A stretch of 64,000 bases of DNA from Escherichia coli (GTDB taxonomy: Bacteria > Pseudomonadota > Gammaproteobacteria > Enterobacterales > Enterobacteriaceae), in assembly GCF_009931435.1 (NCBI RefSeq), contig NZ_CP043414.1. One strand, written 5' to 3'. Position numbers and translations under genes: made by a program. Below the pieces are notes generated by a model. The model made no database searches, was not told the DNA's origin, and was given only the letters and a program-made list of their open reading frames with translations. Shown one piece after another: positions 2,420 to 56,269 of the stretch. Every line of letters starts with the position of its first letter. The first letter of the stretch is position 1.

Positions 2420-3369
2420 CCGTGTTCTCCCACGCTTTTTTGCTGATGCTTGTGGAACCACATTATCGGCACAATTAGCAGCAACAACATGATGATCGCC
2501 ACTGCCGAGGCCACCGGCCAGTCACGGTTGTTAAAGAACTCCTGCCACAGCACGCGTCCGATCATGATGCTATCCGGACCGCCGAGCAGCTCCGGGATTA
2601 CAAACTCTCCCACTGCCGGAATAAAAACCAGCATCGATCCGGCAATAATACCCCCTTTGGTGAGCGGCACGATCACAGTAAAGAATGTTTTCAGCGGTCG
2701 AGCGCCGAGATCCAGTGCCGCTTCCACCAGCGAATAATCAATACGAATCAAGGCGGTGTAGATCGGCAGCACCATAAACGGTACATAGGCATAAACAATG
2801 CCAATATAAACGGCCAGGTTTGTATGCAGAATGGTCAGCGGCTGGTCGATAACCCCCAGCCACAGCAGAAAATTATTCAGCACGCCGTTATTTTTTAATA
2901 TTCCCATCCAGGCATAAACGCGGATCAGAAACGAGGTCCACGACGGCAGGATCACCAGCAGCAATAAGATATTGCGGGTCGAAGGCTTACTGTGCGCCAC
3001 CGCCCACGCCAGCGGATAGCCGATCAGTAAACAACAAATTGTCGAAATCGCCGCTACCTGTAACGACTGGAGATATGCATCGAAATAGAGCGGATCGTCA
3101 GTCAGTTGCAGGAAATTACCAAGATTGAGGGTGATGGAAAGTTGCCCGTCAGCCCACTCCATCAGTTCGGTATAAGGTGGAATAGCGCGCGCCATCTCCG
3201 CCAGACTTATTTTAAAGACGATCAGAAATGGCAGCAGAAACAGCAAGATCAACCAGATATACGGCAACGCAATGACCAGTTTGCGCCCATGCTTCATTTG
3301 CAGCTGCGACAACCACAGCTTAAATCCGCCCGGCGGTTTCGACTGGGCAGCAGGTTCAAGTGTACTCAT
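2416..3369 (-). CDS. potH: Putrescine ABC transporter permease PotH
   Basis: 317-aa ORF with ABC permease EAA-like loop (EAALDLGARPLKTFF); operon position. Confidence 0.9.
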   Translation of the reverse strand: MSTLEPAAQSKPPGGFKLWLSQLQMKHGRKLVIALPYIWLILLFLLPFLIVFKISLAEMARAIPPYTELMEWADGQLSITLNLGNFLQLTDDPLYFDAYLQSLQVAAISTICCLLIGYPLAWAVAHSKPSTRNILLLLVILPSWTSFLIRVYAWMGILKNNGVLNNFLLWLGVIDQPLTILHTNLAVYIGIVYAYVPFMVLPIYTALIRIDYSLVEAALDLGARPLKTFFTVIVPLTKGGIIAGSMLVFIPAVGEFVIPELLGGPDSIMIGRVLWQEFFNNRDWPVASAVAIIMLLLLIVPIMWFHKHQQKSVGEHG

Positions 3370-3378
3370 CTTTGCTCC

Positions 3379-4512
3379 TTAAACCGTCAGCACCACACAA
3401 CTGTCCACTTCCCAGCACAAGCGCACTTCATCGCCCCAGGTGGGTAATCCTTTACGATAACGATGGGCATTTTGTAGCTGGGCGCTGATCATCTGCCCGC
3501 TTTTCAGGCGAACGTGATAGACCGAAAGATCGCCGAGATAGGCAATGTGCATCACCTCCCCCACCGCGAAGTTACAACCATTGGCGGGCGGTTCTTCACA
3601 AAGCATGATTTTTTCCGGACGCAGCGCCACATGCACCGGCACGTTATCGACCACCGAAGCATCTACATCAACTTTCAGTGGATGCACCAGCCCCGGCGAA
3701 TAAAGCACCAGACCATCTTCCTGACGCTCTTTGAGTACACCTTCAAAGACGTTTACCGAACCGATAAATTCAGCACTGTAGCGCGTGGTCGGATGCTCGT
3801 AGATCTCTTCCGGCTCGCCAATCTGGACAAATTTCCCACGATTCATAATGGCGATGCGCCCCGCCATGGTCATCGCCTCTTCCTGATCGTGAGTGACCAT
3901 TACGCAGGTCACACCGACGCGCTCCAGAATATCCACCACTTCAAGCTGCATCCGGTCACGCAGCTTTTTATCCAGCGCGCCCATCGGCTCATCGAGCAGT
4001 AATAGTTTCGGGCGCTTGGCAAGGCTTCGGGCCAGCGCCACACGCTGTCGCTGACCGCCGGAAAGCTGGTGCGGTTTGCGTTTGGCGAACTCCTGCATAT
4101 GCACCAGCCCAAGCATCTCATTGACCCGGCTGGCAATTTCCGCTTTCGGTAGTTTGTCCTGTTTCAGGCCAAAAGCGATGTTCTGTTCCACGGTCATATG
4201 CGGAAACAGCGCGTAAGACTGAAACATCATATTGATGGGGCGCAGGTAAGGCGGCACCTGTGACAAATCGACGCCATCGAGCATAATCTGCCCGGCAGAA
4301 GGTTGTTCGAAACCTGCCAGCATACGCAGCAGCGTGGACTTGCCACAGCCGGATGCGCCCAGCAGCGCGAAGATTTCGCCTTTATAGATGGTCAGGCTGA
4401 CATCATCGACCGCATGCTGACCATCGTAAGATTTAGTCAGATTACGGATTTCTAATAGCGGCGTCAGCGCCTTACGGGTTTTCGCCTGGGGGCGAGGGAT
4501 AGCGTCATTCAC
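3379..4512 (-). CDS. potG: Putrescine ABC transporter ATP-binding protein PotG
   Basis: Walker A GASGCGKST, ABC signature LSGGQRQR, Walker B LLLLDEP. Start placed at in-frame GTG (VNDAIPRPQ, 377 aa) rather than the upstream ATG of the 404-aa ORF. Confidence 0.85.
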   Translation of the reverse strand: MNDAIPRPQAKTRKALTPLLEIRNLTKSYDGQHAVDDVSLTIYKGEIFALLGASGCGKSTLLRMLAGFEQPSAGQIMLDGVDLSQVPPYLRPINMMFQSYALFPHMTVEQNIAFGLKQDKLPKAEIASRVNEMLGLVHMQEFAKRKPHQLSGGQRQRVALARSLAKRPKLLLLDEPMGALDKKLRDRMQLEVVDILERVGVTCVMVTHDQEEAMTMAGRIAIMNRGKFVQIGEPEEIYEHPTTRYSAEFIGSVNVFEGVLKERQEDGLVLYSPGLVHPLKVDVDASVVDNVPVHVALRPEKIMLCEEPPANGCNFAVGEVMHIAYLGDLSVYHVRLKSGQMISAQLQNAHRYRKGLPTWGDEVRLCWEVDSCVVLTV

Positions 4513-7595: not shown

Positions 7596-8318
7596 TTAGC
7601 GCGTAGCCCAACCCTGTTTGTGCAAATAATCCAGTATAAATGGGCGGCTTTCTTTAATGATTGTTCGGCGGATATGATCGCTCCAGGTATCCCGGCGATT
7701 ATTGCTGCCACGGGTGAGGTAATATTCCGCCAGTTGTTCGTCATACTGCGCCAGTGCGTCTTTATCCAGCGGTTGATAGCTGTTTTCATGCACCAAAATG
7801 GAAGCCGGTAAACGCGGCTTAAGATCTGGATTATCCGCAGGCCAGCCAAGGCACAGCCCAAACAGCGGCAGAACATGCTGCGGTAATTTCAGCAGTTCCG
7901 TCACCGCTTCAATATTATTGCGCAGGCCGCCGATATATACCCCGCCCAATCCCAGCGATTCCGCTGCGGTTAACGCATTCTGCGCCATCATTGCCGTATC
8001 AACGACACCGAGCAACAGTTGTTCCGCCAGGCCAAGTTGTGCATCCGGACAGATCTGTAAATGGCGGTTAAAGTCGGCACAGAACACCCAAAACTCCGCC
8101 GCTTTCGCTACGTGTTTTTGCCCGCCGGTCAGCGTCACCAGTTCATCACGTAACGCTTTGTCGGTAATGCGAATAATGCTACTGCACTGCAAAAAACTGG
8201 AACTGGACGTCGCACGGGCGCTGTTAATAATCGCCTCACGCTGCGCTTCGGAAATGGGTTCATCAGTGAAATGGCGAATGGAGCGATGGCCACAAATAAG
8301 TTCAATGGTTGGCGTCAT
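7596..8318 (-). CDS. nfsA: Oxygen-insensitive NADPH nitroreductase NfsA
   Basis: 240-aa ORF MTPTIELICGHRSIRHFTDEPISEAQREAIINSARATSSSSFLQ. Confidence 0.9.
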   Translation of the reverse strand: MTPTIELICGHRSIRHFTDEPISEAQREAIINSARATSSSSFLQCSSIIRITDKALRDELVTLTGGQKHVAKAAEFWVFCADFNRHLQICPDAQLGLAEQLLLGVVDTAMMAQNALTAAESLGLGGVYIGGLRNNIEAVTELLKLPQHVLPLFGLCLGWPADNPDLKPRLPASILVHENSYQPLDKDALAQYDEQLAEYYLTRGSNNRRDTWSDHIRRTIIKESRPFILDYLHKQGWATR

Positions 8319-9682: not shown

Positions 9683-11368
9683 GTGAATATAAACGTCGCC
9701 GAATTGTTAAATGGGAATTACATTCTGTTATTATTTGTGGTCCTCGCGCTTGGGCTATGTCTCGGGAAATTACGACTTGGTTCGATCCAACTGGGTAATT
9801 CCATTGGCGTTTTAGTCGTATCGCTGTTATTAGGCCAACAACATTTCAGCATTAACACCGACGCGCTTAATCTTGGCTTTATGCTGTTTATTTTCTGCGT
9901 CGGGGTCGAAGCTGGACCGAACTTTTTTTCCATTTTTTTTCGCGATGGGAAAAATTACCTAATGTTAGCACTGGTGATGGTTGGCAGTGCGCTGGTGATC
10001 GCCTTAGGGTTAGGTAAGCTGTTTGGCTGGGATATTGGCCTGACGGCCGGTATGTTAGCAGGCTCTATGACGTCAACACCGGTTTTGGTCGGTGCTGGCG
10101 ATACACTGCGTCATTCCGGCATGGAAAGCAGGCAGCTCTCACTGGCACTGGATAATCTGAGCCTCGGGTATGCCTTAACCTATTTAATCGGTCTGGTGAG
10201 TTTGATTGTTGGTGCGCGTTACTTGCCGAAATTGCAGCATCAGGACTTACAGACCAGCGCCCAGCAAATCGCCCGCGAACGTGGCCTGGACACAGATGCC
10301 AACCGTAAGGTTTATTTGCCGGTGATCCGCGCCTACCGCGTCGGCCCGGAGCTGGTAGCCTGGACCGACGGCAAAAATCTGCGTGAACTGGGTATTTATC
10401 GACAAACTGGCTGTTACATTGAACGTATTCGTCGTAACGGGATTCTGGCAAATCCAGACGGTGATGCCGTACTACAAATGGGCGATGAAATAGCGTTGGT
10501 AGGCTATCCCGACGCCCACGCCCGACTCGATCCCAGTTTCCGTAATGGCAAAGAAGTTTTTGATCGCGACCTCCTCGACATGCGTATCGTCACTGAAGAA
10601 GTGGTCGTTAAAAACCATAACGCTGTTGGCAAACGTCTCGCACAACTGAAGTTGACCGATCACGGCTGCTTCCTCAACCGCGTCATTCGTAGTCAGATTG
10701 AGATGCCGATTGATGACAACGTCGTGCTTAACAAAGGTGACGTTTTACAAGTCAGCGGCGATGCCCGTCGCGTAAAAACCATCGCCGATCGCATCGGCTT
10801 TATCTCGATTCACAGCCAGGTCACTGACTTGCTGGCATTCTGCGCCTTCTTTGTTATTGGGCTGATGATCGGGATGATCACCTTCCAGTTCAGCACATTC
10901 AGTTTCGGCATGGGGAACGCTGCCGGGTTGTTATTCGCCGGAATTATGCTGGGCTTTATGCGCGCTAACCACCCGACCTTCGGTTACATTCCGCAGGGTG
11001 CATTAAGCATGGTGAAGGAGTTCGGCTTGATGGTGTTTATGGCAGGCGTTGGTCTGAGCGCTGGTAGCGGTATTAATAACGGCCTGGGCGCGATTGGCGG
11101 TCAAATGTTGATTGCCGGATTGATTGTCAGTCTGGTGCCAGTGGTTATCTGCTTCTTGTTCGGTGCTTATGTATTGCGAATGAACCGCGCACTGTTGTTC
11201 GGCGCAATGATGGGCGCACGCACCTGCGCGCCGGCAATGGAGATCATCAGTGATACAGCTCGCAGTAATATCCCGGCGCTGGGCTATGCGGGCACCTACG
11301 CAATCGCCAACGTTCTGCTAACGCTGGCTGGGACAATCATCGTCATGGTATGGCCAGGATTAGGATAA
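9683..11368 (+). CDS. ybjL: Putative transport protein YbjL (AAE family, two TrkA-C/RCK_C domains)
   Basis: 561-aa ORF with membrane halves flanking a soluble central region. Confidence 0.85.
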
Positions 11369-11409
11369 AACTGAAGTTGCCCTGAAAATGAAATTTTTTT
11401 GCACAACCG

Positions 11410-11440
11410 CAGAACTTTTCCTCAGGGCATCAGTCTTAAT
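11410..11440 (+). promoter_or_regulatory. Candidate sigma-E promoter of RybB (GAACTT -35-like, TCTTA -10-like)
   Basis: agaacttttcctcagggcatcagtcttaatt immediately upstream of the RybB 5' end; sigma-E dependence of rybB is established knowledge. Confidence 0.5.
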
Positions 11441-11444
11441 TAGT

Positions 11445-11523
11445 GCCACTGCTTTTCTTTGATGTCCCCATTTTGTGGAGCCCATCAACCCCGCCATTTT
11501 GGTTCAAGGTTGGTGGGTTTTTT
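11445..11523 (+). ncRNA. rybB: RybB small RNA (sigma-E-dependent, Hfq-binding regulator of outer-membrane protein mRNAs)
   Basis: gccactgcttttctttgatgtccccattttgtggagcccatcaaccccgccattttggttcaaggttggtgggttttttgtt matches the RybB sequence I recall almost base for base, including the 5' GCCACUGCUUUUCUUU seed and a terminator hairpin plus U-run; lies in the ybjL-rcdA intergenic region. Confidence 0.8.
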
Positions 11524-11542
11524 GTTATCTAAAATTTATCTA

Positions 11543-12079
11543 CTACCCTGCAACCCTCTCAACCATCCTCAAAATCTCCTCGCGCGATAGCGGCTTACGG
11601 TCGGTGACAAAATGCAGCGTCATCCCCTCAATAAACGCATCAAGCGCGCGGGCGGTTCCGGGTTCAAACCATTGTTCGAGCGTTTGCTGACTGCGCTGCA
11701 TCCAGTTTTGCATTACCGTTTTTAATAGCGGTTTTCGGCTAGCCAGCGCGTAGAGCTGGTACATCAGCTCCATGTTATCCGGCGTTGCAACCTGTGAGCT
11801 GTAGATCATATCGGTGATAGCCTGGCATGCGCCCGGAGCATCACTAACATCGCTAAAAAATGCCTGATATTGCCGGGACATGATCTCAGTAAAACTGCTG
11901 AACGCCTCCAGCAACAACTCATCAATTCCTGAAAAATAGTAGGTCATCGACCCCAACGGTACCCCGGCAAGGGTAGCAATTTTGCGGTGCGTAACGGCAT
12001 GTATTCCGTAAAGTTTCACCGCCTCCAGCGTGGCCTGGATAATTTTTTCTCGCCGTTGCGGATCGTTAGCGCGACGCAT
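11543..12079 (-). CDS. rcdA: TetR-family transcriptional regulator RcdA (YbjK)
   Basis: Trimmed to [21 protein letters not shown] (178 aa); N-terminal TetR-type HTH. Confidence 0.85.
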
Positions 12080-35135: not shown

Positions 35136-35220
35136 AGGCCTGATAAGTTGCGACAAGCGTCGCATCAGGCATTTGCTCCAGACGCCAGATGCGGCGTGAA
35201 CGCCTTATCTGGCCTACGGT
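35136..35220. repeat. REP/BIME elements downstream of moeB
   Basis: gcctgataagttgcgacaagcgtcgcatcaggc and gccagatgcggcgtgaacgccttatctggcc, typical REP palindromes. Confidence 0.6.
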
Positions 35221-35302
35221 TCGGGCGCAGATTTCCAGGCGCGGCAAGCGTTGGTGCACTCCACCACGTTATCAGCAATTGATGAGGATGCAGAACGTCC
35301 TG

Positions 35303-39572: not shown

Positions 39573-40388
39573 ATGAGCGTAAAAGTTATCGTCACAGACA
39601 TGGACGGTACTTTTCTGAGCGACGCCAAAACGTACAACAATGAGCGTTTTATGGTGCAATATCAGGAACTTAAAAAGCGCGGCATTGAGTTCGTTGTCGC
39701 CAGCGGTAATCAGTATTACCAGCTTATTTCGTTCTTTCCTGAGCTAAAGGATGAGATCTCTTTTGTCGCGGAAAACGGCGCACTGGTTTACGAACATGGC
39801 AAGCAACTGTTCCACGGCGAACTGACCCGACATGAATCAAGAGTTGTCATTGGTGAACTGCTGAAAGACAAGCAGCTCAATTTTGTTGCCTGCGGTTTGC
39901 AAAGCGCGTATGTCAGTGAGAATGCGCCAGAAGCATTCGTCGCGCTAATGGCAAAACACTACCATCGTCTGAAACCTGTGAAAGATTACCAGGATATTGA
40001 TGATGTACTGTTCAAGTTTTCGCTCAACCTGCCTGACGAACAAATCCCGTTAGTGATCGACAAACTGCATATTACGCTCGATGGCATTATGAAGCCCGTC
40101 ACCAGTGGTTTTGGCTTTATCGACCTGATTATTCCTGGCCTGCATAAAGCGAATGGTATTTCGCGGTTACTGAAACGCTGGGATCTGTCACCGCAAAATG
40201 TGGTAGCGATTGGCGACAGCGGTAACGATGCGGAGATGCTGAAAATGGCGCGTTATTCCTTTGCGATGGGCAATGCTGCGGAAAACATTAAACAAATCTC
40301 CCGTTACGCTACCGATGATAATAATCATGAAGGCGCGCTGAATGTGATTCAGGCGGTGCTGGATAACACCGCTCCTTTCAATAAGTAA
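39573..40388 (+). CDS. ybiV: Sugar phosphatase YbiV (SupH), Cof-type HAD
   Basis: [17 protein letters not shown]; 271 aa; paralogous to ybjI in this window. Confidence 0.85.
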
Positions 40389-40539
40389 CCTTTTCCCGGC
40401 CGGAGCAATCGTTCCGGCATCTCTCTTTTTTGCTCACTTTGTGCACTTACTCAAGATTTTCATCTTGCGTTAACTTATTTTTAACTTAAAGTATCAATCA
40501 TAACTATTTTCACTTTCGAACGAAAGTTGTGAGGTTGAT

Positions 40540-41799
40540 ATGACTTTTACCTATGAGACACTGCCAACAGATGCGAAAACGGCTATCCGTAAGATGAAAG
40601 CGGAGCTGCGACAACAGATCGGCGATGTACAACAGGTCTTCGATAAACTCTCTGCAAAAATCGAAGCACGTGTAGCAGAAATAGACGCCCTCAAAGGGCA
40701 AGGATTACCGGTTTGGCCGGAAGTCCCATATAGCGACGTTGCAGCAGGTACAGTGAGTGAAGCCACGCGCAATGAAATTAAACGTCGCGGCTGTGCAGTA
40801 ATTAAAGGCCATTTCCCCCGCGAACAGGCACTGGCATGGGATCGCGCAATGCTTGACTATCTTGATGCCAATCATTTTGATGATGTTTATAAAGGTCCCG
40901 GCGACAGCTTCTTTGGATCGCTGGAGGCATCTCGTCCTGAAATCTACCCTATTTACTGGTCGCAGGCACAAATGCAGGCGCGACAAAGTGACAATATGGC
41001 GGCGCTGCAATCTTTCCTTAACCGCCTGTGGAAGTCTGAAAGCAACGGCAGGCAGTGGTTTGATCCCGATATTAGCGTGATCTATCCGGACAGGATCCGC
41101 CGCCGCCCACCAGGCACGACGTCTAAAGGTCTGGGTGCACACACTGATTCTGGGGCGCTGGAACGTTGGTTATTACCCGCTTATCAGCGTGTTTTTGCCC
41201 ATGTTTTCAACGGTAATGTCGACGATTACGATCCGTGGGATGCTGCATACCGTACTGATGTTGAAGAGTACACGGTAGATAACACCACAAAATGTTCGGT
41301 GTTCCGCACTTTTCAAGGCTGGACGGCGCTTTCCGATATGTTACCAGGACAGGGATTATTGCATGTGGTGCCAATCCCGGAAGCGATGGCGTATGTTTTA
41401 TTGCGCCCACTGCTGGATGACGTACCGGACGATGAGTTGTGTGGGGTCGCTCCTGGCAAAGTTCTGCCCATTTCAGAGAGATGGCATCCACTACTGATTA
41501 AAGCACTCACTTCCATTCCAGCTATTACAGCGGGGGATTCCGTCTGGTGGCACTGCGACGTGATCCACTCCGTCGCACCGGTAAATAATCAACAAGGCTG
41601 GGGGAATGTGATGTATATCCCTGCCGCGCCGATGTGTGAGAAAAACCGGGCTTATGCGCATAACGTCAGGAAAGCACTGGAAAAAGGGGCATCACCGGGC
41701 GATTTCCCTCGAGAAGATTATGAAGCAAACTGGGATGGCCGATTTACGCTGGATGATCTGAACATTCACGGTAAGCGCGCGCTGGGCATGGATGTTTGA
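40540..41799 (+). CDS. ybiU: YbiU (DUF1479 family protein)
   Basis: 419-aa ORF in the conserved position. Confidence 0.8.
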   Translation: MTFTYETLPTDAKTAIRKMKAELRQQIGDVQQVFDKLSAKIEARVAEIDALKGQGLPVWPEVPYSDVAAGTVSEATRNEIKRRGCAVIKGHFPREQALAWDRAMLDYLDANHFDDVYKGPGDSFFGSLEASRPEIYPIYWSQAQMQARQSDNMAALQSFLNRLWKSESNGRQWFDPDISVIYPDRIRRRPPGTTSKGLGAHTDSGALERWLLPAYQRVFAHVFNGNVDDYDPWDAAYRTDVEEYTVDNTTKCSVFRTFQGWTALSDMLPGQGLLHVVPIPEAMAYVLLRPLLDDVPDDELCGVAPGKVLPISERWHPLLIKALTSIPAITAGDSVWWHCDVIHSVAPVNNQQGWGNVMYIPAAPMCEKNRAYAHNVRKALEKGASPGDFPREDYEANWDGRFTLDDLNIHGKRALGMDV

Positions 41800-41884
41800 G
41801 AGGTGATGGATTAGTAGAAGTGAATTGATGTGAGGTTAAGAAAGCAGGTTCGGTGTTGCTCTGATTGCTGACAAAGTGCGCTTT

Positions 41885-42045
41885 GTTCATGACGGATGCG
41901 GCGTTAACGCCTTATCCGGTCTACAAAGTCCTGAAAATTCAATATATTGCGATACGCTGTCAGGCCTGATAAGCGTAGCGCATCAGGCAATTTTGCATTT
42001 GTCATCAGTTTCAGTAGCCCTGACCCTATCAGGGCTACTGATAAT
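41885..42045. repeat. REP elements plus an 11-bp-stem hairpin between ybiU and ybiT
   Basis: cggatgcggcgttaacgccttatccggtctac, ctgtcaggcctgataagcgtagcgcatcaggca and agtagccctga-ccctat-cagggctact. Confidence 0.6.
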
Positions 42046-46546: not shown

Positions 46547-46824
46547 TACATAAAATCAAATAAAATCATAATGTTAACAAAACAAAAAAAATAATCAATG
46601 TCGCAAAAATGTCTCACAAAACAAAAGCCATAACTTATTTGCTTGTTTTTTTATAGTGTCAGTATTAATCTAGTATATCAAAATGTTATCACTTCAATTA
46701 TTCTCTGCTTAACATTTATTTAAGAAATAATATTTTTAAGCTCTTTAAAAAAACCTTAAATAACGCTGATAGTTTCTTAGGAAAACTTAACGATAGTGGT
46801 AAATTAATCCCAAAGGACTAAAAA

Positions 46825-48060
46825 ATGGTATTAAGTAACTGTATTCAATGTCAGTCATGCAAATTTATATATAGAGTTAGGGTTGGTATTGGGTTTGATA
46901 AATACCAAAGACATTATATGGACTGTTTTGAGTGTAATATTCCTATTGTTTTTGCTATACGAACAGACCCACCAAATGCTTATCTTGAAGCGGAAGAAAA
47001 CTGCCTAATTGTTGAACATAGTACAGACCACAAGGTTGTTAACTTCCATCCGGGATGTGCTTTTAATAAAGATGAGATACATCAGTCACTGATATTCCCA
47101 TCTATTGAATTGACACAAATGATTCATAAACATATGAGGATGCCGAAAGGACAACGCCTTATAAGTGCCTCTCATCAATTTGATATTCCCAACGCCCCCT
47201 CCAAATGGAATTATTTAAAATCAATAATAAAACTTATTAATGAAGGAAAGAAAGACAAAGCTCAGAATACAGCAAAGCTTTATATGCAATCAAGAAATAA
47301 AGAGTTACCTTTGTATAATGAAGATGATAGCTATTCCTCTACATCTCTAATCTATGAGTTTTTAGATTGGCTTTTCTATCCTCGAGTACATGATATAGCC
47401 GATTCCATTAAAAAAACAATTGATGACCTTAAAGAACAAAATTTGTTGGATGATTTTTACGCTTTCTATAAAGAAAATTTAAAATCCGAAAATGAACAAA
47501 GATACATCAATATAATATCAGATTTCATGGCTCGTAGAGATCATTTCGGGCAGTTAATCTATTACGCAAGAATTAACAACGATGCAATAGACGATAAGAT
47601 AATTAGCTCTAAGAACTTCGATAATGTAAGAAATTATTATGGAGATGCTTATGAAAGTCTGACATCTAACATGACTATTTTAGCATGTATTAATAACATC
47701 GTCAGTGGAAGGGCATTCGATCAGTTCAAGCAAATGACATTGAATAAATACATAAAGGATGTAAATAAAGACAGTAAAACAAACCCATTTAAGGACAACC
47801 CTTTATTTAGCGCATTTTGTGAAGATGATTTAGAGTCAGCAATAAGAAATGGTTCTCATCATGCCTCTATATGGCATGACGGAGAGAGTATTCGATATAG
47901 AAGTGGCGGAACTGGCGCAGAAAGAGAAATAAGCTATACAAAATATATTCACCTTTGTAATAAGCTAACTCTTAAAATCGTAAGTTTGTGGTTAATTGAA
48001 CTTCATATCCAACATATTTACGAAAAAGATGATAATAGCTATGCATGGTTTCATCTTTAA
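46825..48060 (+). CDS. Hypothetical protein, 411 aa, AT-rich cargo gene with N-terminal Cys cluster (possible zinc ribbon); function unknown
   Basis: Long ORF with AAGGA RBS 8 nt upstream of ATG; sampled lines are about 28-37 percent G+C versus about 50 percent in flanking genes; N-terminus CIQCQSC...CFEC; rest rich in K/N/D/E/Y; no family recognised by eye. Confidence 0.6.
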   Translation: MVLSNCIQCQSCKFIYRVRVGIGFDKYQRHYMDCFECNIPIVFAIRTDPPNAYLEAEENCLIVEHSTDHKVVNFHPGCAFNKDEIHQSLIFPSIELTQMIHKHMRMPKGQRLISASHQFDIPNAPSKWNYLKSIIKLINEGKKDKAQNTAKLYMQSRNKELPLYNEDDSYSSTSLIYEFLDWLFYPRVHDIADSIKKTIDDLKEQNLLDDFYAFYKENLKSENEQRYINIISDFMARRDHFGQLIYYARINNDAIDDKIISSKNFDNVRNYYGDAYESLTSNMTILACINNIVSGRAFDQFKQMTLNKYIKDVNKDSKTNPFKDNPLFSAFCEDDLESAIRNGSHHASIWHDGESIRYRSGGTGAEREISYTKYIHLCNKLTLKIVSLWLIELHIQHIYEKDDNSYAWFHL

Positions 48061-48116
48061 GTTAAATATTTGATTCACTAATTTTCAGTTTCTACTCACT
48101 CTAATGATTGTACATA

Positions 48117-48143
48117 GCCCGCACCATTCTTGGTATTGCGGGC
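48117..48143 (+). terminator. Weak hairpin downstream of the 411-aa gene
   Basis: gcccgca-13 nt loop-tgcgggc followed by ttt. Confidence 0.3.
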
Positions 48144-48553
48144 TTTCAGCCGTTTATATCACTTAACGCAATTAGATCATGCAACTTTACACAATATGGT
48201 TTTTTCTATTATTTTTCAGTTGGTTGAATGGATTAGCCATCACACAACTGATCTATAAAACTGAAAAACACTGAAATTCTTTTCAATCTTTTCAGTGGCA
48301 GCTCTCCGGCAAACCGCCAACAGTGGCGCAGCCTGACGCTCACGTTTGTAGAAAAATAAAACTGAAAAATTTTATCGATCCAGAAACCGCAGGCGGGTGC
48401 GGTGTAGTGCCATTTTGGTCTGCGAAAGATTTATTTTGTCAGTGCGTAGTGCCGTCAGCGCAACGTGACAGCACAGATCCTTTTGTGGTGTTACGGGATG
48501 GTGGTCAGAGAAAAAAAGTGCTTAGAATGCTTCTGGTTGCGTGAGAATACAGG

Positions 48554-48579
48554 TATAAAAAACCCGCACTAGGCGGGTA
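48554..48579 (-). terminator. Rho-independent terminator of the 84-aa gene (minus strand)
   Basis: Plus strand reads aaaaaa-acccgc-actag-gcgggt; on the minus strand this is a perfect 6-bp GC stem followed by a T-run, directly after the ORF stop. Confidence 0.55.
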
Positions 48580-48589
48580 CTAAAGAGAG

Positions 48590-48844
48590 CTATTTCATTT
48601 CGTTAAGTGCGTACGCACCTCTATCAGTGAGTGCAAAAAAGCCATCCCTTACGCTGGGTTGAATCAACCCAAACATACGCAATTCACCCAGTATTTGTTC
48701 TGAGCGACTACCAGCACCAGAATGCTTAATTAGTGCAAATTCAGGCTGTGCTTCTTCACTGAGCAAAGTCAATATTTTGACAATGGCGTCACGTTTGCTT
48801 TCATCTGCAATGTCATGGTATGGATTGATGGAACAGGTTACCAT
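48590..48844 (-). CDS. Hypothetical small protein, 84 aa, monocistronic
   Basis: ORF MVTCSINPYHDIADESKRDAIVKILTLLSEEAQPEF... bounded by terminator-like hairpins on both sides; separate transcription unit from the tail operon. Confidence 0.45.
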   Translation of the reverse strand: MVTCSINPYHDIADESKRDAIVKILTLLSEEAQPEFALIKHSGAGSRSEQILGELRMFGLIQPSVRDGFFALTDRGAYALNEMK

Positions 48845-48984
48845 AGTGTTTTCCTTTTTTTATGAAAATCATATTTTACCATATCCCAACACGCCATATT
48901 GAAGTGCTCAATATTCACTCACCCTAAAAGGTATCTGTTGTGCAATCAGTTCCCCTACTCCCAGGTATCGCGGTTAAACAGGTA

Positions 48985-49010
48985 TCAAAAAGCCGCATTA
49001 TGCGCGGGCT
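48985..49010 (-). terminator. Candidate terminator of the prophage tail operon
   Basis: Imperfect GC hairpin (gcccgcgcataatgcggc on the minus strand) followed by a T-run, a few bases after the stop of the 567-aa gene. Confidence 0.4.
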
Positions 49011-49020
49011 GATGGGATGA

Positions 49021-50724
49021 TCAGGCGATGATTTTCTGGTACTTACTTCGGGTCTGTCCTGCTTTCTCTGCTGTCTGGGTAAATGCTCCGGCATTGGTTG
49101 GCGTACCAACACTGGGGTGCGAATGACTCGCACATTGCTGCGCCAGCTCTGCCAGTAAATCAATGGTGTCCAACATCATGGTCAGCGTGTTTACACTCTC
49201 ACTGCCGATATGGATGGTTGGCCCCATAATCTGCTGACCGCCCGATGCTACCGATTTGCGTAATGCAGTAATCTTTTCAGTCAGGCTTTCGCCAACCTCC
49301 ACGGCTACAGCACCGCCCACTTTAATGGACTGCTGTCCTGCTATGTCCGTTTCTTCGTTTCCTTCAATGCTGGCCAGCCTGTTACCTTTCACGGCCTGGC
49401 TAAAATCCCCGGCACTGACCTGCTGAATGGCTCCGGCTAGCAGGGTGGCGGTCCCCACCACAATGGTTTTATCCGTGGCTTTAACCGTGGTTTCGCGACT
49501 GACCAGATCACGTTGTTCTGTATCTGCTTTTACCGTTCGCACCATCGATGTTTCACTGATGGTCTGATCGGTCTGCCTTACCCAGTCACCCGCCAGAGTC
49601 ACCCTCTGGGATACTTCTTCCCGCTGCTGCTGCAATTGCTCACCGGGTTTAACGTCCGGCAGACTGGTGCCATCCGGTAGCGTCTGCCTGATAAAAGGTT
49701 TATCCGGTCTGCCTCCTGTGAATGCGACCTCAACCAGCGTCCCTTCTGGCGGGAACTGAAACATACCTGAATCATTCCCGGCCATTGGTACCGGCAGCGG
49801 CACCGCTGAATAAACAGGCGTCTGATTGTCCGGATTTCCGTCTGCGTCAAGCAGCTGCACGTCCACGGCGTAACGTGGCCGGAAGGGATCGGCAAAGTTA
49901 CCGCTTTTTACCGGCTCTGAATGCGCCACGACTCTGGCCATCTTTGGCAAATGAAGCCCGGATGCCAGTTCCGGGTAATGGCTTTCAATCTGCCGTTGCG
50001 CTGGTGTTTTCTGCAAAGGTTTACCCGTTGCGCGGTTTCTCGGCGTCCATGTGATCGCCATCGTGTCATTAGTCAGGTGAACTTTAGTCACGCGTTCACC
50101 GTTCATCTCCACCCCTGGCCGCATAGTCTGGATCACTGGTAATGTCACAGAGTTACCGCCAGCAGCCCCCTGGCTGAACTCTGACGGGATTTCTACTGGA
50201 CGACCGGCAAACAATGACTTTTCTGCGCCGCCGACGTAAAGCGAACCATCAGGTAACTGGTACCAGATGTAATCCTGGATACTGAACGCCCTGCCCAGAT
50301 TGTTCAGCAACTGATAACCAGTACCGTTATGGGTAAAATGTGGGATGGGGGTATCGCTGTACTGTGCATCAGGCACACTGACCGTGATCCCGCTGTTTTC
50401 TTCCAGCCAGCCCGCAATTTCACGCAAAGTCGGGTGTTGAAACGAACATGGCCACATCCTTTCAAACACACCTACCAGCTCACGAATGAATAGGCGCTGA
50501 AAACCGTTTTCAGCGGGCTGCGATCGCTCCACATACCCCGTAAACCAGCGCAAAAGCAGATCGGTATACCCCACATCCAGCCGCACCAGTTTTCCGGTGT
50601 AATCGGTTGTTGTCTCTGCGGTGATGAAGCCCCGGCCGCAGCTGTTCAGCTCCAGTACCAGGCTGACATCCACCAGGTGAACTTCATCCGTTGAAAGGTA
50701 AAGACGTTTTACTGGTTTCATCAT
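49021..50724 (-). CDS. Phage baseplate hub/spike protein (gpD/VgrG-like), 567 aa
   Basis: Last gene of the tail operon; C-terminal third is a low-complexity V/T/G/S-rich repeat region typical of beta-helical spikes; call is by architecture and context only. Confidence 0.5.
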   Translation of the reverse strand: MMKPVKRLYLSTDEVHLVDVSLVLELNSCGRGFITAETTTDYTGKLVRLDVGYTDLLLRWFTGYVERSQPAENGFQRLFIRELVGVFERMWPCSFQHPTLREIAGWLEENSGITVSVPDAQYSDTPIPHFTHNGTGYQLLNNLGRAFSIQDYIWYQLPDGSLYVGGAEKSLFAGRPVEIPSEFSQGAAGGNSVTLPVIQTMRPGVEMNGERVTKVHLTNDTMAITWTPRNRATGKPLQKTPAQRQIESHYPELASGLHLPKMARVVAHSEPVKSGNFADPFRPRYAVDVQLLDADGNPDNQTPVYSAVPLPVPMAGNDSGMFQFPPEGTLVEVAFTGGRPDKPFIRQTLPDGTSLPDVKPGEQLQQQREEVSQRVTLAGDWVRQTDQTISETSMVRTVKADTEQRDLVSRETTVKATDKTIVVGTATLLAGAIQQVSAGDFSQAVKGNRLASIEGNEETDIAGQQSIKVGGAVAVEVGESLTEKITALRKSVASGGQQIMGPTIHIGSESVNTLTMMLDTIDLLAELAQQCASHSHPSVGTPTNAGAFTQTAEKAGQTRSKYQKIIA

Positions 50725-51269
50725 TAATCCAAAGCATCATTGACGGGCTTCAGCACCTTGCGTTCAAACCACGTCAGTTTTTCTTCATCCTCTCCGGCAG
50801 ACTGGCCACCGAACTGCCCCGCACTACCGGCAGTCTGTTTTTTTGCGGTCGTCTTACCTGTTGCCCTGGCCTCTCGCTTTTCCTGCACGCTGATATGTTC
50901 AGCCAGTGTGAATGTCACCAGCCAGGACATTTTCCCGTCCTGCTGGGGCGCATCCAGCATTCCGCTGAACGTTGCTTCACGAAAATTAACAGCACGGGCA
51001 ACTTCATGCGCCACGCGGTACTTCTGACGATTACCACTGGCATCGGTAGCACTGGCCAGCTCAAAAATACGCTTCAGTATTTCAGGCTGTTTAAAAGGTA
51101 TTTCACCGCTGATCCGCAGTTCCTTTCCCTTTGCTCCCTGCTCTGATTTTGTTGTGGCACTGGTCTGGCCGGACTGATCTTTATCCTGAAATTGCTGTGA
51201 AACAGTCACCCGCATGTTTTTCAGCTGGATGGCCTCGCCATTAAGCGCCAGTGTCGGGATCGAAGTCAT
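50724..51269 (-). CDS. Phage tail-associated protein, unknown function (181 aa)
   Basis: ORF translationally coupled (ATGA overlap) to the hub gene; no family recognised. Confidence 0.4.
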   Translation of the reverse strand: MTSIPTLALNGEAIQLKNMRVTVSQQFQDKDQSGQTSATTKSEQGAKGKELRISGEIPFKQPEILKRIFELASATDASGNRQKYRVAHEVARAVNFREATFSGMLDAPQQDGKMSWLVTFTLAEHISVQEKREARATGKTTAKKQTAGSAGQFGGQSAGEDEEKLTWFERKVLKPVNDALD

Positions 51270-52002
51270 GAATCATTCCCTTTATTCCATCAAGATTATC
51301 GCCAACCAGCATCATGGCTGCGGTGTAAACGGCAGACTGCTGCGGAATGTCCTTCACCAGTTCCAGTAACGTTGTGCCGGTGTCTCCGCTGGCAGTAAAA
51401 ACCCACGCTCTGGCACTCTTCCCCTGTAAGTCATTCAGGCCGCTGGCCACATCACTGATAAGCTGGTCACGCAGCTGCGTGAACTCGCCCAGCTGTTTTT
51501 TCAGCCCTTCGATATCAAATCCGGCACCCGCCACCTTTTGTGCCTGGTTGATTGCCGCAGCAGATAAAGCTGCCCTGCTGGTTGGTACAGACAGTGGAAT
51601 GGACGCAGGTAACGCTGCGGCGGTTTTCGCCGGGATCTGCATCTTTTCAATAGCCAGCGCTGCGGCGGATTGCGCCAGCCGTTTTACCTGCGTGAATGCC
51701 GGGGCGGGGAAAATCCCGACCAGGTTATTCAGGCTGGCCATAAAGTTTTCCTGCGTCTGTCCGGTGACCATCATAATCACCACGTCCACATTCCCCCCAG
51801 TTCCGGCCAGGCGTTCAGCAAGATAGCGAACAGCATTAACCGGGCTGAGATATGCCCCGTTCGCTGTCTGCTGTCCCAGCCCATAAATCCACGGATGCGC
51901 AGGGACGATCGAACAGTTCAGCGCAGCAACAGAATCCGTGAAGGCCAGACGTGCTTCACGCCACATTTCCAGGCACCTCCGGCCACACAATTTCCGGCGC
52001 AT
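51241..52002 (-). CDS. Phage tail-associated protein, unknown function (about 240-253 aa)
   Basis: Ala-rich ORF overlapping both neighbours in the tail operon; true start may be the internal MWREARLAF. Confidence 0.4.
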   Translation of the reverse strand: MRRKLCGRRCLEMWREARLAFTDSVAALNCSIVPAHPWIYGLGQQTANGAYLSPVNAVRYLAERLAGTGGNVDVVIMMVTGQTQENFMASLNNLVGIFPAPAFTQVKRLAQSAAALAIEKMQIPAKTAAALPASIPLSVPTSRAALSAAAINQAQKVAGAGFDIEGLKKQLGEFTQLRDQLISDVASGLNDLQGKSARAWVFTASGDTGTTLLELVKDIPQQSAVYTAAMMLVGDNLDGIKGMIHDFDPDTGA

Positions 52003-52543
52003 CTTCCGCTTGAATACGATTCAGTAAAACGCGGTATTTTTTCCATGCGGTAAGTAACAATGTTTCTTCCTGGCTCGCCATGCCTAAAACAACAGCATCC
52101 TGCAATGTGGCAATGGCAGTATGGGCCTGTTTAAGCAGTCTTATCTTTTCCAATTCTGCCTCACGGGTTAATGCAACTCGCATAGACTCAGCATCATCCT
52201 CCCATTTACTGCCATTCCATTTTTGCCATGCGTTTTCAGGCTCCAGAGTAGTTGTTCCAGCTGGATAATCCCCTGGTGCTGTTATCACGAACCTTCTAGC
52301 GTCTTTCGTATCAAATACAATTTCGCCACGGTGATCTTTAATAGCAATCCATTTCTGTTTTTCTGTATTAAAAATTGCCACGAATCCGTCTTTTGTTAAT
52401 GGAGGTTTAATTGTGGTGCAATTGGCTGGTAGTCCTGTGTGAGCGGGAATAAAAGCGTTATCACTACCAATAAACTCATTCGTCTCAGAATGAAGTTTAT
52501 AAACAGTAACTGTTTGATCGATATCACTCATTTTAAATATCAT
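51956..52543 (-). CDS. Tail fibre assembly protein (Tfa/Mu U-like)
   Basis: [43 protein letters not shown]... and C-terminal EETLLLTAWKKYRVLLNRIQAEDAPEIVWPEVP closely resemble K-12 cryptic-prophage Tfa proteins. Confidence 0.8.
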   Translation of the reverse strand: MIFKMSDIDQTVTVYKLHSETNEFIGSDNAFIPAHTGLPANCTTIKPPLTKDGFVAIFNTEKQKWIAIKDHRGEIVFDTKDARRFVITAPGDYPAGTTTLEPENAWQKWNGSKWEDDAESMRVALTREAELEKIRLLKQAHTAIATLQDAVVLGMASQEETLLLTAWKKYRVLLNRIQAEDAPEIVWPEVPGNVA

Positions 52544-54150
52544 TAAGCGAGTCTCACGATATAGTTTAATGCAATGTTTTTAACAGTGTTTTCTGAAGTA
52601 CCCGCAGCATTAACCGTAATGGTGTGTCCATGCGAACCAATCGCAACAGAGTGCGTATGAGCACCAATACCGACAGTATGTTTATGCTCCCCAGCACTTG
52701 CTGCAGTACCTGATACCGAGTGGGTGTGTGCGCCCGCAGAATTCGTTGCACCTAAGTGAGTTTGAGCAGAGTTCGACGAAGCTACTCTACCGGAGCTAAC
52801 GTTAGCATTATCTCCCTGAGATATCGGATGTGTATGTGCACCTGCTGAAGCAGCTGTTCCGCTAACACTATGGGTATGAGCACCAGTGTTATTCGTAGAT
52901 TTAGTTCCATAATCAAACGATGATGTGGTTTTTGTCCCTAAATCGGTATTTGAGGCACTGGCGCTATGGGTATGTGACTTAATATTATCCTGTTCATAAG
53001 ATAATACGGCACGTCCGCTGTTAGGCTTACCTTTAATCGTCTGCCCGCGCATATCAGGAATAACACCCAATGGATACGCAGCAGCCAATAATGGATATAC
53101 TGCCTTATCAAAAGACTGCCCCTGCATAATTGCCCAGCCAGGAGGTGGAATATCTGCTGGCCATGGAAGTGGAACACCAACCGGCAGAACATCACTACGA
53201 CTTAAAACGGCCAGTTCACCCAGCTCCAGGCTTTTTCTTGCTTTCACCTTGTCGCTAACATCAGCAAGGTTTGCATCCTTACGCAAAAAATCGCTGCTGG
53301 CCTGCTGTTCTCCCAGGCTACCCTTTGGCCGTAAATCCGTGATGTTGCCATCCGCATCAATGCTGGCCACAGCAAACACATAATGCTGAACCCCGTTCTG
53401 AACATAATCAGCAAGATTTGCTGCCACCGTGATTTTGCTCTGCACATTCCAGACACTGGTCAGTGTCCCTGTCCAGCACACATCCAGCCAGACTTTTACC
53501 GGCTTTGTCGTTACCGTAATATTCTGATTCGCAGCCAGTGACGCACGAAGTCCAGCCACATACCCCGTGCCTTTCGTGACAAAAAACTGATTGCCGGTTT
53601 TGGCTACCAGATACCCGTTACCAAAAAACGCCGCCGCGCCATAAATATCCATATTTTCCAGGCGCTGGCGTTCATCCATTCCGGCCAGACGTGCAGTAAA
53701 ATCAATCTGCCATGTTTCAGCGGGTGTATTAATCCCGGTTTCCGTTTGTGCGCCATTGTACTCCATCAGAAACGAGCGGGTCAGCACGTTCCCCTGTTGA
53801 CCTTCTTTTGTTTTCAGTTTCTGCTGTGATGGTGCATGGACAATCATTGCCAGCGTACCGCTGGCCTTATTGAGCAGACCGATCCAGTTAAAACTGAAAT
53901 CACCCACATCTGCGCCCAGCACTACGGAATAGACCACACCGTTTTCATCCACCACACCGGTGCGGGTAACAGACTGCCGGTGAACAATCTGTGCAGCCGG
54001 TGGTAATGTTTCATTGCGGTCAACAGGTGTATCCGGGTTTAAATCCGGCACACTGGCAAAAACAAATTCATCCAGTAGTACCGGTTCACCCGTTGCGCCC
54101 TGCTGCGCTTTCCAGTTTTCAAACGCCAATGTGATGGCTGTCTGTGACAT
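52543..54150 (-). CDS. Tail fibre protein (gpH / side-tail-fibre family) with His-rich receptor-binding tip
   Basis: 535-aa; C-terminus ...[23 protein letters not shown]...[63 protein letters not shown] matches the conserved Stf/Mu-S type C-terminal domain. Confidence 0.8.
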
Positions 54151-54160
54151 AAAAACCTCC

Positions 54161-54754
54161 TTACAAACTCGCGCTGAATGTTGCGCTGCGGGCTTCCGTC
54201 CCTGCTAACGTCGCCGGGTAAACCACATATTCCCCCTGACCCCACCCGGCCCTGATAACCAGGCTTTCAGGCGTGATCACCTCAAACTGATAACGGCGGC
54301 ATGTTCGCCCGTACTGGCGGATTATCTGGATCAGCAGCTGCGTGTTGTCTGCAATCTGGCTGTCTGTAACCCGAACCAGAATCACATCCCAGTCGATATC
54401 CGGTTGCCGTTCGAACAGCTCCACATAACCAATTCCCAGCCGTTCAAAGATATTGATAAACCCCTCAACTGAACCAGCATCCCGCGCATTCACGAAGGCA
54501 AAAGCCACACGTTTGCGGAACAGGGTCAACGGTTCACCATCAAAGCGGGTGATATCCCGGTCATAAGCCAGCAGGTTCAGTAATGCCGGTGTACACGTCA
54601 GCGGATCAAACTGATTCATTGGCCAGGTAATCCAGCCGTAAACCTCAGCCCAGAACCGCCGCGCCGTTTTCAGCAATTTCCCCGGTTCGCCTTTATTCAT
54701 CCAGGACGGCAGGAACATCCCGGCCAGCTTTTTCATGAACTCATTCATTCTCAA
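54161..54754 (-). CDS. Phage tail protein I-like (baseplate component)
   Basis: 197-aa ORF between the J-like and tail-fibre genes; [11 protein letters not shown] motif resembles gpI-family proteins. Confidence 0.55.
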
Positions 54755-55925
54755 TATTCACCGTCAGTGATTTCAGACGCGGCACGCTCAGTTCACTGGT
54801 AATGTCTCCCAACGAAAATGTCAGTGATTCCGTCTGTGCAAAGGTTTTATGAATTTCCCGCCCCAGTTGCGAAAAGGAAAACCGCGAATATGGCCACGTC
54901 TTTCTGACGTCATAATCAGCATTTTCACGAAAGGCACAGCGGATCATGTTTTCAATGCCGCCCTTCAGCGTTTTCACCTCTTCGTCACTGAAGTTGTTCA
55001 GATTTTTGACATAAACTGTGACGGCCAGATCGTGAAGAGTTTCCGGCATGGGATAGCACTGCATATCATCACCATGCCCGTGGTGCCCCAGCGTGTTGAT
55101 ATAGTCATTCACCGCATCCACGAACGGCGCTGATGCCACCCCACTGTCCAGTAATAAAAAGGCGTTGGCTGTTCCTGGCCCCCTCGGTGCTTCATGCTCA
55201 AAGAAAATCCGATCGATACTCAACCCGGCAACACTGGCGATCATTGAGCGATAAACCGCATCAGTGTGGTAATTCCCCACCAGATTGAACTGATTGCGGC
55301 AACGCTCGCGCAATTCATCATCACTTTCCTCGTCAGCCCCCGGCACTGTCAGCCAGTTTTCCTCACTGGCCACATGGCTGATACCACTGACCGCCATCGG
55401 CAGAATGCGGTAATATCCGGGCGCAAGGTTATATGCGCCCCCGGTGCCAGTGGCTTTCACCGGCAGTAATGCGCTGGCCGCGCCGGAAGCGATCACCACA
55501 TCCTCAGTGGTGGCCAGCTCATACACTCGCCCGTTAATGCGTTCTGTCTGGATAACCGTCCCGGCGTTGACCGTCACAACGGCCTTTGCATCTTCTTTGA
55601 AGAACCGAATAACCCCCTGCGCAGCGCTCGCTGGTTTTGCCGTGACGTTCACCGCCCATGCCAGCAAACGCAACATGCTCCCGCTGGCTGTGGCCACAAA
55701 CATATTGGCCAGCACGGTTAACACCAGAACGTCTTTAAGCCACATCACCGGGGCGGTCACAATGGCGGTGATTAATCGCCAGAACGGTGACATTCGGGAT
55801 GTATTGGTGATAATTCCCTCATCTGCTGCAATTGCATTGAAGCGTTCCCGCACTTCGGCTTCCGTTACCGGCATACCGCTGTCTTTCACCACTTCTTCAA
55901 AATCAACCTGCGGTTTTTCCGTCAT
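54741..55925 (-). CDS. Baseplate J-like protein (gpJ/gp47 family)
   Basis: Start placed at MTEKPQVDFEEV, which forms an ATGA overlap with the upstream W-like gene; size and position typical of baseplate J. Confidence 0.7.
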   Translation of the reverse strand: MTEKPQVDFEEVVKDSGMPVTEAEVRERFNAIAADEGIITNTSRMSPFWRLITAIVTAPVMWLKDVLVLTVLANMFVATASGSMLRLLAWAVNVTAKPASAAQGVIRFFKEDAKAVVTVNAGTVIQTERINGRVYELATTEDVVIASGAASALLPVKATGTGGAYNLAPGYYRILPMAVSGISHVASEENWLTVPGADEESDDELRERCRNQFNLVGNYHTDAVYRSMIASVAGLSIDRIFFEHEAPRGPGTANAFLLLDSGVASAPFVDAVNDYINTLGHHGHGDDMQCYPMPETLHDLAVTVYVKNLNNFSDEEVKTLKGGIENMIRCAFRENADYDVRKTWPYSRFSFSQLGREIHKTFAQTESLTFSLGDITSELSVPRLKSLTVNIENE

Positions 55926-56269
55926 AAATCCACCTGCGCAGAGATCCCGCCAAAATCGTATGTACTCGCGGTTACCCACAACCGCTTCTGACTTTCTTCA
56001 CTGATTTCCACCGTACCCGGCACAATGCGTTCATCATCTTCAATCAGTAATTCCATGCGGGTAAAAATATCCGCTCTCATTGTCGGGCTACGTTCGGCAA
56101 TTAATTCCGTCGCTAACCCACTTTCAATAATGGAATGAATAATGTCCTGCCCGATACTTTTTCGGTTATTACATAATTCAGGTTCATTACCGGTATTCAG
56201 AACAAAGTCACCGCCCTGAATCAGCAAATCGATATAAAGAACATCACTCATGCGCCAAGCTCCTGCCAT
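55922..56269 (-). CDS. Baseplate W-like (gp25-like) small protein, 115 aa
   Basis: Size and position immediately upstream of the J-like gene; assignment by context. Confidence 0.45.
   Translation of the reverse strand: MAGAWRMSDVLYIDLLIQGGDFVLNTGNEPELCNNRKSIGQDIIHSIIESGLATELIAERSPTMRADIFTRMELLIEDDERIVPGTVEISEESQKRLWVTASTYDFGGISAQVDL

Follow-up and report, generated by a model that had tools for sequence, protein, structure and literature searches.

The rybB small RNA gene in the ybjL-rcdA spacer of an Escherichia coli strain: a two-base minority allele overlapping an empty prophage attachment site

The ybjL-rybB-rcdA locus

The window analysed here is a stretch of 64,000 nucleotides of Escherichia coli DNA, in which the spacer between ybjL and rcdA carries the gene of the small RNA RybB (Table 1). 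The gene lies on the same strand as ybjL, whose stop codon at 11368 is 76 nt upstream and whose product matches the NCBIfam model NF003440 (1178 bits, against a cutoff of 645), and the stop codon of rcdA, on the opposite strand, begins at 11543, i.e., 19 nt past the 3' end of rybB. Coordinates and strands thus agree with the initial annotation, which had described the gene as directly downstream of ybjL and convergent with rcdA.

The same annotation had claimed a RybB gene of about 79 nt in this spacer and had named a Rfam scan and an alignment to the K-12 gene as means of checking it, both of which confirm the claim. With gathering thresholds applied throughout the window, the scan returned two matches. 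The RybB model RF00110 was found at 11448-11526 (+) with 104.8 bits (E 1.7e-20), far over its gathering score of 40 bits, and the match is full-length, covering model positions 1-79 of 79 with no truncation. The rybB of K-12 MG1655 (b4417) is an ncRNA of 79 nt on the minus strand of NC_000913 (887979-888057), between rcdA and ybjL, to which positions 11445-11523 of the window align without gaps, with 77 of the 79 nt identical. The two sequences are the same over nt 1-55, so that no substitution falls in the 16-nt seed or elsewhere in this segment. The description of the RNA as essentially invariant therefore stands for all of the target-contacting sequence, as far as the alignment indicates, but it does not hold literally, given the two substitutions further downstream. 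The span initially proposed, 11410-11523, starts 2 nt before the -35 element (11412) and ends at the last U of the tail. Judged by its sequence, the window carries an intact rybB at its usual position between ybjL and rcdA, which is an already known and ordinary arrangement.

The gene had also been said to be invisible to ORF-based annotation, and this is supported by the public records: among the matches listed, the E. coli records annotated by PGAP hold no feature in the ybjL-rcdA spacer (11369-11542; e.g., positions 3001-3174 of locus L001), and the rybB ncRNA is annotated only in the curated K-12 record. ORF-based pipelines consequently overlook a regulator that is conserved and whose gene is, in addition, a frequent site of prophage insertion, and the value of annotating it lies here.

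The second Rfam match of the window is naRNA4 (RF02564, a REP-type nucleoid-associated RNA), at 35137-35214 (-), with 68 bits (threshold 59.5). The match falls in a stretch of 108 nt (35148-35255) that is unaligned to K-12, between colinear blocks near fsaA/moeB, and this stretch probably represents a strain-variable REP/BIME element.

Table 1. Features of the rybB locus and differences from K-12 in the ybjL-rcdA spacer (window coordinates)
Feature	Position	Strand	Description
ybjL CDS	9683..11368	+	Aspartate:alanine antiporter family; 561 aa, 100% identical to K-12 YbjL
-35 element GAACTTT	11412..11418	+	Positions -33 to -27; cross-species invariant
Substitution G->T (K-12 to window)	11422		Position -23, between the promoter blocks
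-10 element AGTCTTAA	11432..11439	+	Positions -13 to -6; cross-species conserved
rybB transcript	11445..11523	+	79 nt, +1 G to last tail U; K-12 b4417 alignment, RF00110
16-nt 5' seed GCCACUGCUUUUCUUU	11445..11460	+	Identical to K-12; target-recognition domain
Terminator hairpin	11479..11519	+	12-bp stem, 11479-11490 with 11508-11519; Rfam consensus structure, MFE folds
Substitution C->U (K-12 to window)	11500		RybB nt 56, terminator loop
Substitution A->G (K-12 to window)	11513		RybB nt 69, 3' arm
Empty attB	11513..11539		P2-like/Felsduovirus prophages; overlaps the last 11 nt of rybB
U-rich tail UUUUUUGUU	11518..11526	+	Termination signal; read from sequence
Substitution C->T (K-12 to window)	11535		12 nt downstream of the RNA
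rcdA (ybjK) CDS	11543..12079	-	TetR-family regulator; 178 aa, 100% identical to K-12 RcdA

The locus in other species

For the comparison across species, an exact-match scan with nt 4-25 of RybB, taking one genome per species, gave 120 loci, which span Escherichia, Salmonella, Citrobacter, Enterobacter, Klebsiella, Serratia, Yersinia, Xenorhabdus, Proteus, Providencia and others. Given that the loci were chosen through the seed, the set is uninformative on the conservation of the seed itself, and the promoter and the terminator were free to vary.

Of the 109 Enterobacterales loci with enough upstream sequence, 91 have a gene similar to ybjL on the strand of rybB, with its end 64-101 nt before the small RNA gene. 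In the loci from Xenorhabdus, Proteus and Providencia (Morganellaceae), rybB is present with no detectable ybjL homologue upstream. Downstream, the distance between rybB and a gene similar to rcdA ranges between 8 nt and about 10 kb, and it was this wide spread that led to the role of the locus as an attachment site, treated below.

The sigma-E-type promoter

The motif GAACTT-N16-TCTTA is found at 11412-11438, ending 6 nt before the +1 position (G 11445), in a context that reads aGAACTTTT at 11411-11419 and aGTCTTAa at 11432-11439. Taken alone, a loose sigma-E pattern is not significant in a sequence of this size, with one match in 64 kb against 1.23 expected by chance, and the promoter was for this reason judged by its conservation across species instead.

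In 106 distinct 45-nt upstream sequences from the Enterobacterales, the positions -33 to -27 (GAACTTT), -12 to -10 (GTC), -7 (A) and -1 (T) are invariant or conserved at 99-100%, and the A at -13 at 95%, with almost no information in the unconserved 16-nt spacer between the two blocks. The window agrees with every one of the conserved positions, and its only promoter difference from K-12, at 11422, falls in an unconserved spacer column of 0.13 bits. The blocks also agree with the published sigma-E consensus, which has GGAACTTTT as the -35 element and GTCAAA as the -10 element (PMC1804206). The weight of the motif would thus come from its position and its conservation across species, which speak for it much more strongly than the bare pattern does, and the sigma-E-type promoter proposed in the initial annotation is borne out by blocks held at a fixed distance from +1 in all 106 sequences. 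In published work, the rybB promoter is strictly dependent on sigma-E, with its activity at background level in a strain deleted for rpoE (PMC1804206).

A sigma-70-like site on the minus strand (11562-11533, 9 of 12 matches) was considered as well and set aside, given that one such site found against 0.5 expected is indistinguishable from chance.

The terminator and the independence of the gene

The intrinsic terminator that had been proposed is present as a 12-bp hairpin, which encloses a loop of 17 nt with a small inner helix, followed by a run of six U (UUUUUU, 11518-11523) that closes the RNA and whose DNA counterpart is nearly invariant across species. A simple terminator scan of 11300-11650, limited to loops of at most 8 nt, reported no terminator; this is because the loop of rybB exceeds that limit, and the hairpin is brought out instead by folding and by covariation.

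In an alignment of 65 distinct RNA bodies, 97.9% of the cells of the 12-bp stem are paired and compensatory double changes are seen in seven of its 12 pairs, values that were equalled in none of 500 shuffles, and sliding one partner by 1-3 columns lowers the pairing to 15-52%. The inner 4-bp helix is weaker, being paired in 89.8% of cells and absent in Providencia, and the z-score of the fold of the whole RNA is modest (-2.2). By analogy with other sRNAs (PMC9486967, PMC11979758), the U-tail is predicted to serve as the 3' Hfq-binding site.

These data also bear on the reading in which there is no independent gene here at all, and the signal comes either from the 3' untranslated end of ybjL together with its terminator or from a short protein-coding ORF. 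The former finds some support in the fact that ybjL stops shortly before rybB, on the same strand and with nothing terminator-like between them, and the latter in three mechanical ORFs of 43-71 aa that overlap the gene, at 11360-11497 (-), 11459-11590 (+) and 11475-11690 (+). Neither agrees with a promoter whose -35 and -10 blocks are invariant and keep their distance from +1 in 106 distinct sequences, with the annotation of the K-12 locus as a separate ncRNA or with published work that mapped a +1 proper to rybB and demonstrated its dependence on sigma-E (PMC1804206). The Xenorhabdus, Proteus and Providencia loci, which have rybB but no detectable ybjL upstream, argue further against an extension of ybjL, and indels of 1 and 2 nt, together with paired compensatory changes, fit a structured RNA but not a reading frame. 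The protein-coding reading of the overlapping ORFs is ruled out by these frame-breaking indels and compensatory substitutions, and the probability that rybB is no gene of its own is practically nil.

The two-base minority allele

As an independent small RNA gene, the rybB of the window is distinguished from that of K-12 by two of the four substitutions that separate the spacers of the two strains (Table 1). The first, C56U, lies in the loop of the terminator, within the inner helix, and the second, A69G, converts a U:A pair of the stem into U:G. The predicted fold energies are nearly equal (-25.0 kcal/mol for the RNA of the window and -25.2 kcal/mol for that of K-12), since the little that the wobble costs is offset by an A:U pair that the inner helix gains through U56.

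The exact 79-nt allele of the window occurs in 151 of the 5420 matching complete E. coli records, against 4497 of 5420 for the allele of K-12, and its 151 genomes come from varied hosts. The spacer of 174 nt was matched in 5418 of the 5426 complete E. coli genomes and, among the matches listed, it is 100% identical in only a few strains, such as R32_14_1F (goat). Overall, the window and K-12 are colinear and about 97% identical, with 98.1% in the kilobase that contains rybB, so that two changes in 79 nt are no more than the divergence usual in this region, and they fall at positions that tolerate change.

A region of lower identity lies elsewhere in the window, at 40000-42000, where the identity to K-12 is 80-84%, compared with about 97% in the rest. 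It comprises ybiU, part of ybiV and the ybiT-ybiU intergenic region, and by its divergence it looks like an allele acquired through recombination. At its end, 41860-42013 weakly matches two further intergenic regions of K-12, rlmC-artJ and ybiO-glnQ, which suggests a dispersed intergenic repeat at this point.

Given the allele of rybB described above, a weakened or inactive RNA must be considered, in which C56U and A69G would impair termination, RNA stability or Hfq binding. This would be in keeping with the exchange of a U:A pair for a U:G wobble inside the stem, with the retention of the A at position 69 in all sampled Enterobacteriaceae outside E. coli and with the rarity of the exact allele (151 of 5420). 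Set against this, the RNA is predicted to be as stable as that of K-12, and U:G counts as a standard pair. Position 56 is free to vary from species to species, G69 is shared with other E. coli lineages, and the allele has been retained in 151 complete genomes. With the seed, the promoter and the U-tail unaltered as well, an impaired rybB is very unlikely.

The folding predictions and the variation among species favour the view that C56U and A69G are functionally neutral. There is a slim chance, slightly above that of an impaired gene and still low, that the combination of U56 and G69 is not neutral and that it shifts the half-life of the RNA, the binding of Hfq, the read-through of the terminator into the antisense of rcdA or the efficiency of P2-like integration, effects that are conceivable on the basis of the longer inner loop helix and of the wobble at the edge of the prophage attachment core. 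The loop change C56U finds no support as a functional alteration of the terminator loop, given that the regulatory terminator loops described in the literature are those of SdsR, RseX and ArrS, and not that of RybB (PMC11979758).

A prophage attachment site at the 3' end of rybB

P2-like prophages integrate at an attachment site that includes the last bases of rybB. The site is empty in the window, where rcdA directly follows rybB. The strain EH09-18-41 has rybB and rcdA separated by an entire P2-like prophage, which measures about 34 kb and extends from the integrase to ogr. Its attL reads ...GGTTGATGGGTTTTTTGTT followed by GCCTGA..., and its attR reads ...CATAAATGGGTTTTTTGTT followed by ATCTAAAAC..., so that the core common to both is ATGGGTTTTTTGTT, the last bases of rybB. 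In the lysogens, rybB stays intact. Besides the window, these observations concern 8140-8170 of locus L005, at 3520-3560 and 37670-37700 of L127 and at 150-190 of L128.

A probe for the junction was covered to at least 80% in 1113 of the 5426 complete E. coli genomes. The arm on the phage side, GCCTGAAATTTAT, resembles the sequence that follows rybB at the empty sites of E. albertii, Citrobacter, Enterobacter and Serratia, and the empty sites of E. coli read ATCTAAAA(T/C)TTAT. By this resemblance, the homology core may extend over about 27 nt, of which E. coli would hold the diverged partner.

The attachment site at rybB is already published. "Rybb*" P2 prophages are present in E. coli W, B and Crooks, and the one in Crooks carries the retron Ec86 (PMC3032704); the defence hotspot #29 is occupied by Felsduovirus prophages (PMC10121019); and an island of Klebsiella is on record as well (PMC4048246).

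The relation between the allele of the window and integration was considered through the junctions. The search of the E. coli genomes gave no lysogen junction that combines U56 with G69, an absence of the double allele that is confounded by lineage structure, and a lysogen with G69 and C56 exists, which indicates that G69 does not block integration. The idea that the allele of the window is refractory to P2-like prophages is for these reasons unsupported.

Seven matches to rybB are located on records labelled as plasmids, including NZ_CP148327.1 (42 kb, locus L005) and NZ_CP019246.1 (45 kb). In the one that was inspected, the chromosomal segment from potH to ybjL and rybB is joined to a P2-like prophage in a circle of 42 kb, and this looks like an assembly artefact or an excised prophage circle with flanking DNA, and not a true plasmid.

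A separate P2-family prophage with no counterpart in K-12 occupies 46548-64000 of the window, adjoining mntR. Its genes encode a tail fibre, baseplate J, a tape measure, a holin, DUF2586, a head completion protein and gpM, and the capsid genes lie just past this stretch in the matching genome NZ_CP106924 (99.9% identity). The colinearity with K-12 ends at 46547, which corresponds to K-12 position 853056 and lies some 9 nt into the rybA/mntS transcript, counted from its 5' end, and the stretch is covered to at least 80% in only 22 genomes.

The seed and its predicted targets

The first 16 nt of RybB have been described as an autonomous multi-target seed, mounted on a scaffold formed by the Hfq site and the terminator hairpin (PMC9486967), and the core CRCUGCUUUU is common to RybB and to the sigma-E sRNAs MicV and VrrA of Vibrio (PMC6694218). 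This conserved motif is found at 11447-11456, inside the seed, and nt 6-30 are unpaired in the MFE fold of the RNA of the window.

The pairing of the first 25 nt of the RNA of the window was calculated against ompC and ompW sequences taken from K-12, not from this genome. With the 5'UTR of ompC (-64 to -41, where GCAGUGGC stands opposite the 5' end of RybB), the predicted energy is -24.4 kcal/mol, and none of 500 shuffled seeds was as good; with the early coding sequence of ompW (about +13 to +20), it is -22.3 kcal/mol, and 12 of 500 shuffled seeds were as good. The pairing predicted in silico to these two K-12 targets is consistent with the repression of omp mRNAs.

A model of RybB action in this strain

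Taken together, the best explanation of the locus, and one that is almost certainly correct, is a chromosomal E. coli rybB whose 79-nt RNA is a sigma-E-induced, Hfq-dependent repressor of omp mRNAs. Envelope stress would free sigma-E, and RNA polymerase carrying it would start transcription at G 11445 from GAACTTT-N-AGTCTTAA. Transcription would then end at the hairpin and U-tail, at 11523, yielding the RNA of 79 nt. As the 76 nt that separate ybjL from rybB show nothing terminator-like, the same terminator probably also ends the transcripts that read through from ybjL.

The RNA would bind Hfq through the module of the 3' hairpin and U-tail, and its single-stranded seed, GCCACUGCUUUUCUUU, would be expected to pair with many mRNAs of outer-membrane proteins, such as ompC and ompW. 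Such pairing would block translation and hasten the decay of the mRNA, resulting in fewer unfolded porins and in feedback on the activity of sigma-E. From the sequence comparisons, all of the determinants of this mechanism appear to be present and intact in the window, and by analogy with the published work on K-12 and Salmonella, the dependence on sigma-E, the binding of Hfq and the repression of the targets are expected to hold in this strain as well.

In the published work, RybB accelerates the decay of omp mRNAs under envelope stress, and the deletion of rybB raises the activity of sigma-E (PMC1804206), a factor that drives about 100 genes in addition to MicA, RybB and MicL (PMC6694218, PMC4102768). 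RybB is thus a central regulator of envelope stress, through which sigma-E can quickly stop the synthesis of porins. An intact rybB means that the strain has the standard circuit, and it leaves the knowledge of RybB unchanged.

Comparison with known systems

The closest relative is the RybB of K-12 (b4417), which shares with that of the window the ybjL-rybB-rcdA locus, the length of 79 nt, nt 1-55, the -35 and -10 elements, the +1 and the U-tail, and which differs from it by C56U and A69G and, outside the RNA, at position -23 and at 11535. In Salmonella enterica and other Enterobacterales, RybB agrees with that of the window in its seed, its sigma-E promoter blocks and the architecture of its hairpin, and the RNA body of the Salmonella arizonae locus (L084) is identical to that of K-12. 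It was in Salmonella that the function of RybB, i.e., the sigma-E-dependent acceleration of omp mRNA decay, was established (PMC1804206).

In the RybB of Yersinia, Serratia, Xenorhabdus, Proteus and Providencia, on the other hand, the stem is replaced by compensatory pairs (e.g., CCCGAUAGUC/GACUAUCGGG), and the loop varies in both length and sequence. Finally, MicA and MicL of E. coli and MicV and VrrA of Vibrio cholerae resemble RybB in that a sigma-E promoter gives rise to an Hfq-dependent sRNA that represses the mRNAs of abundant envelope proteins, but these are other genes, with other loci and other scaffolds, whereas the element of the window is RybB itself.
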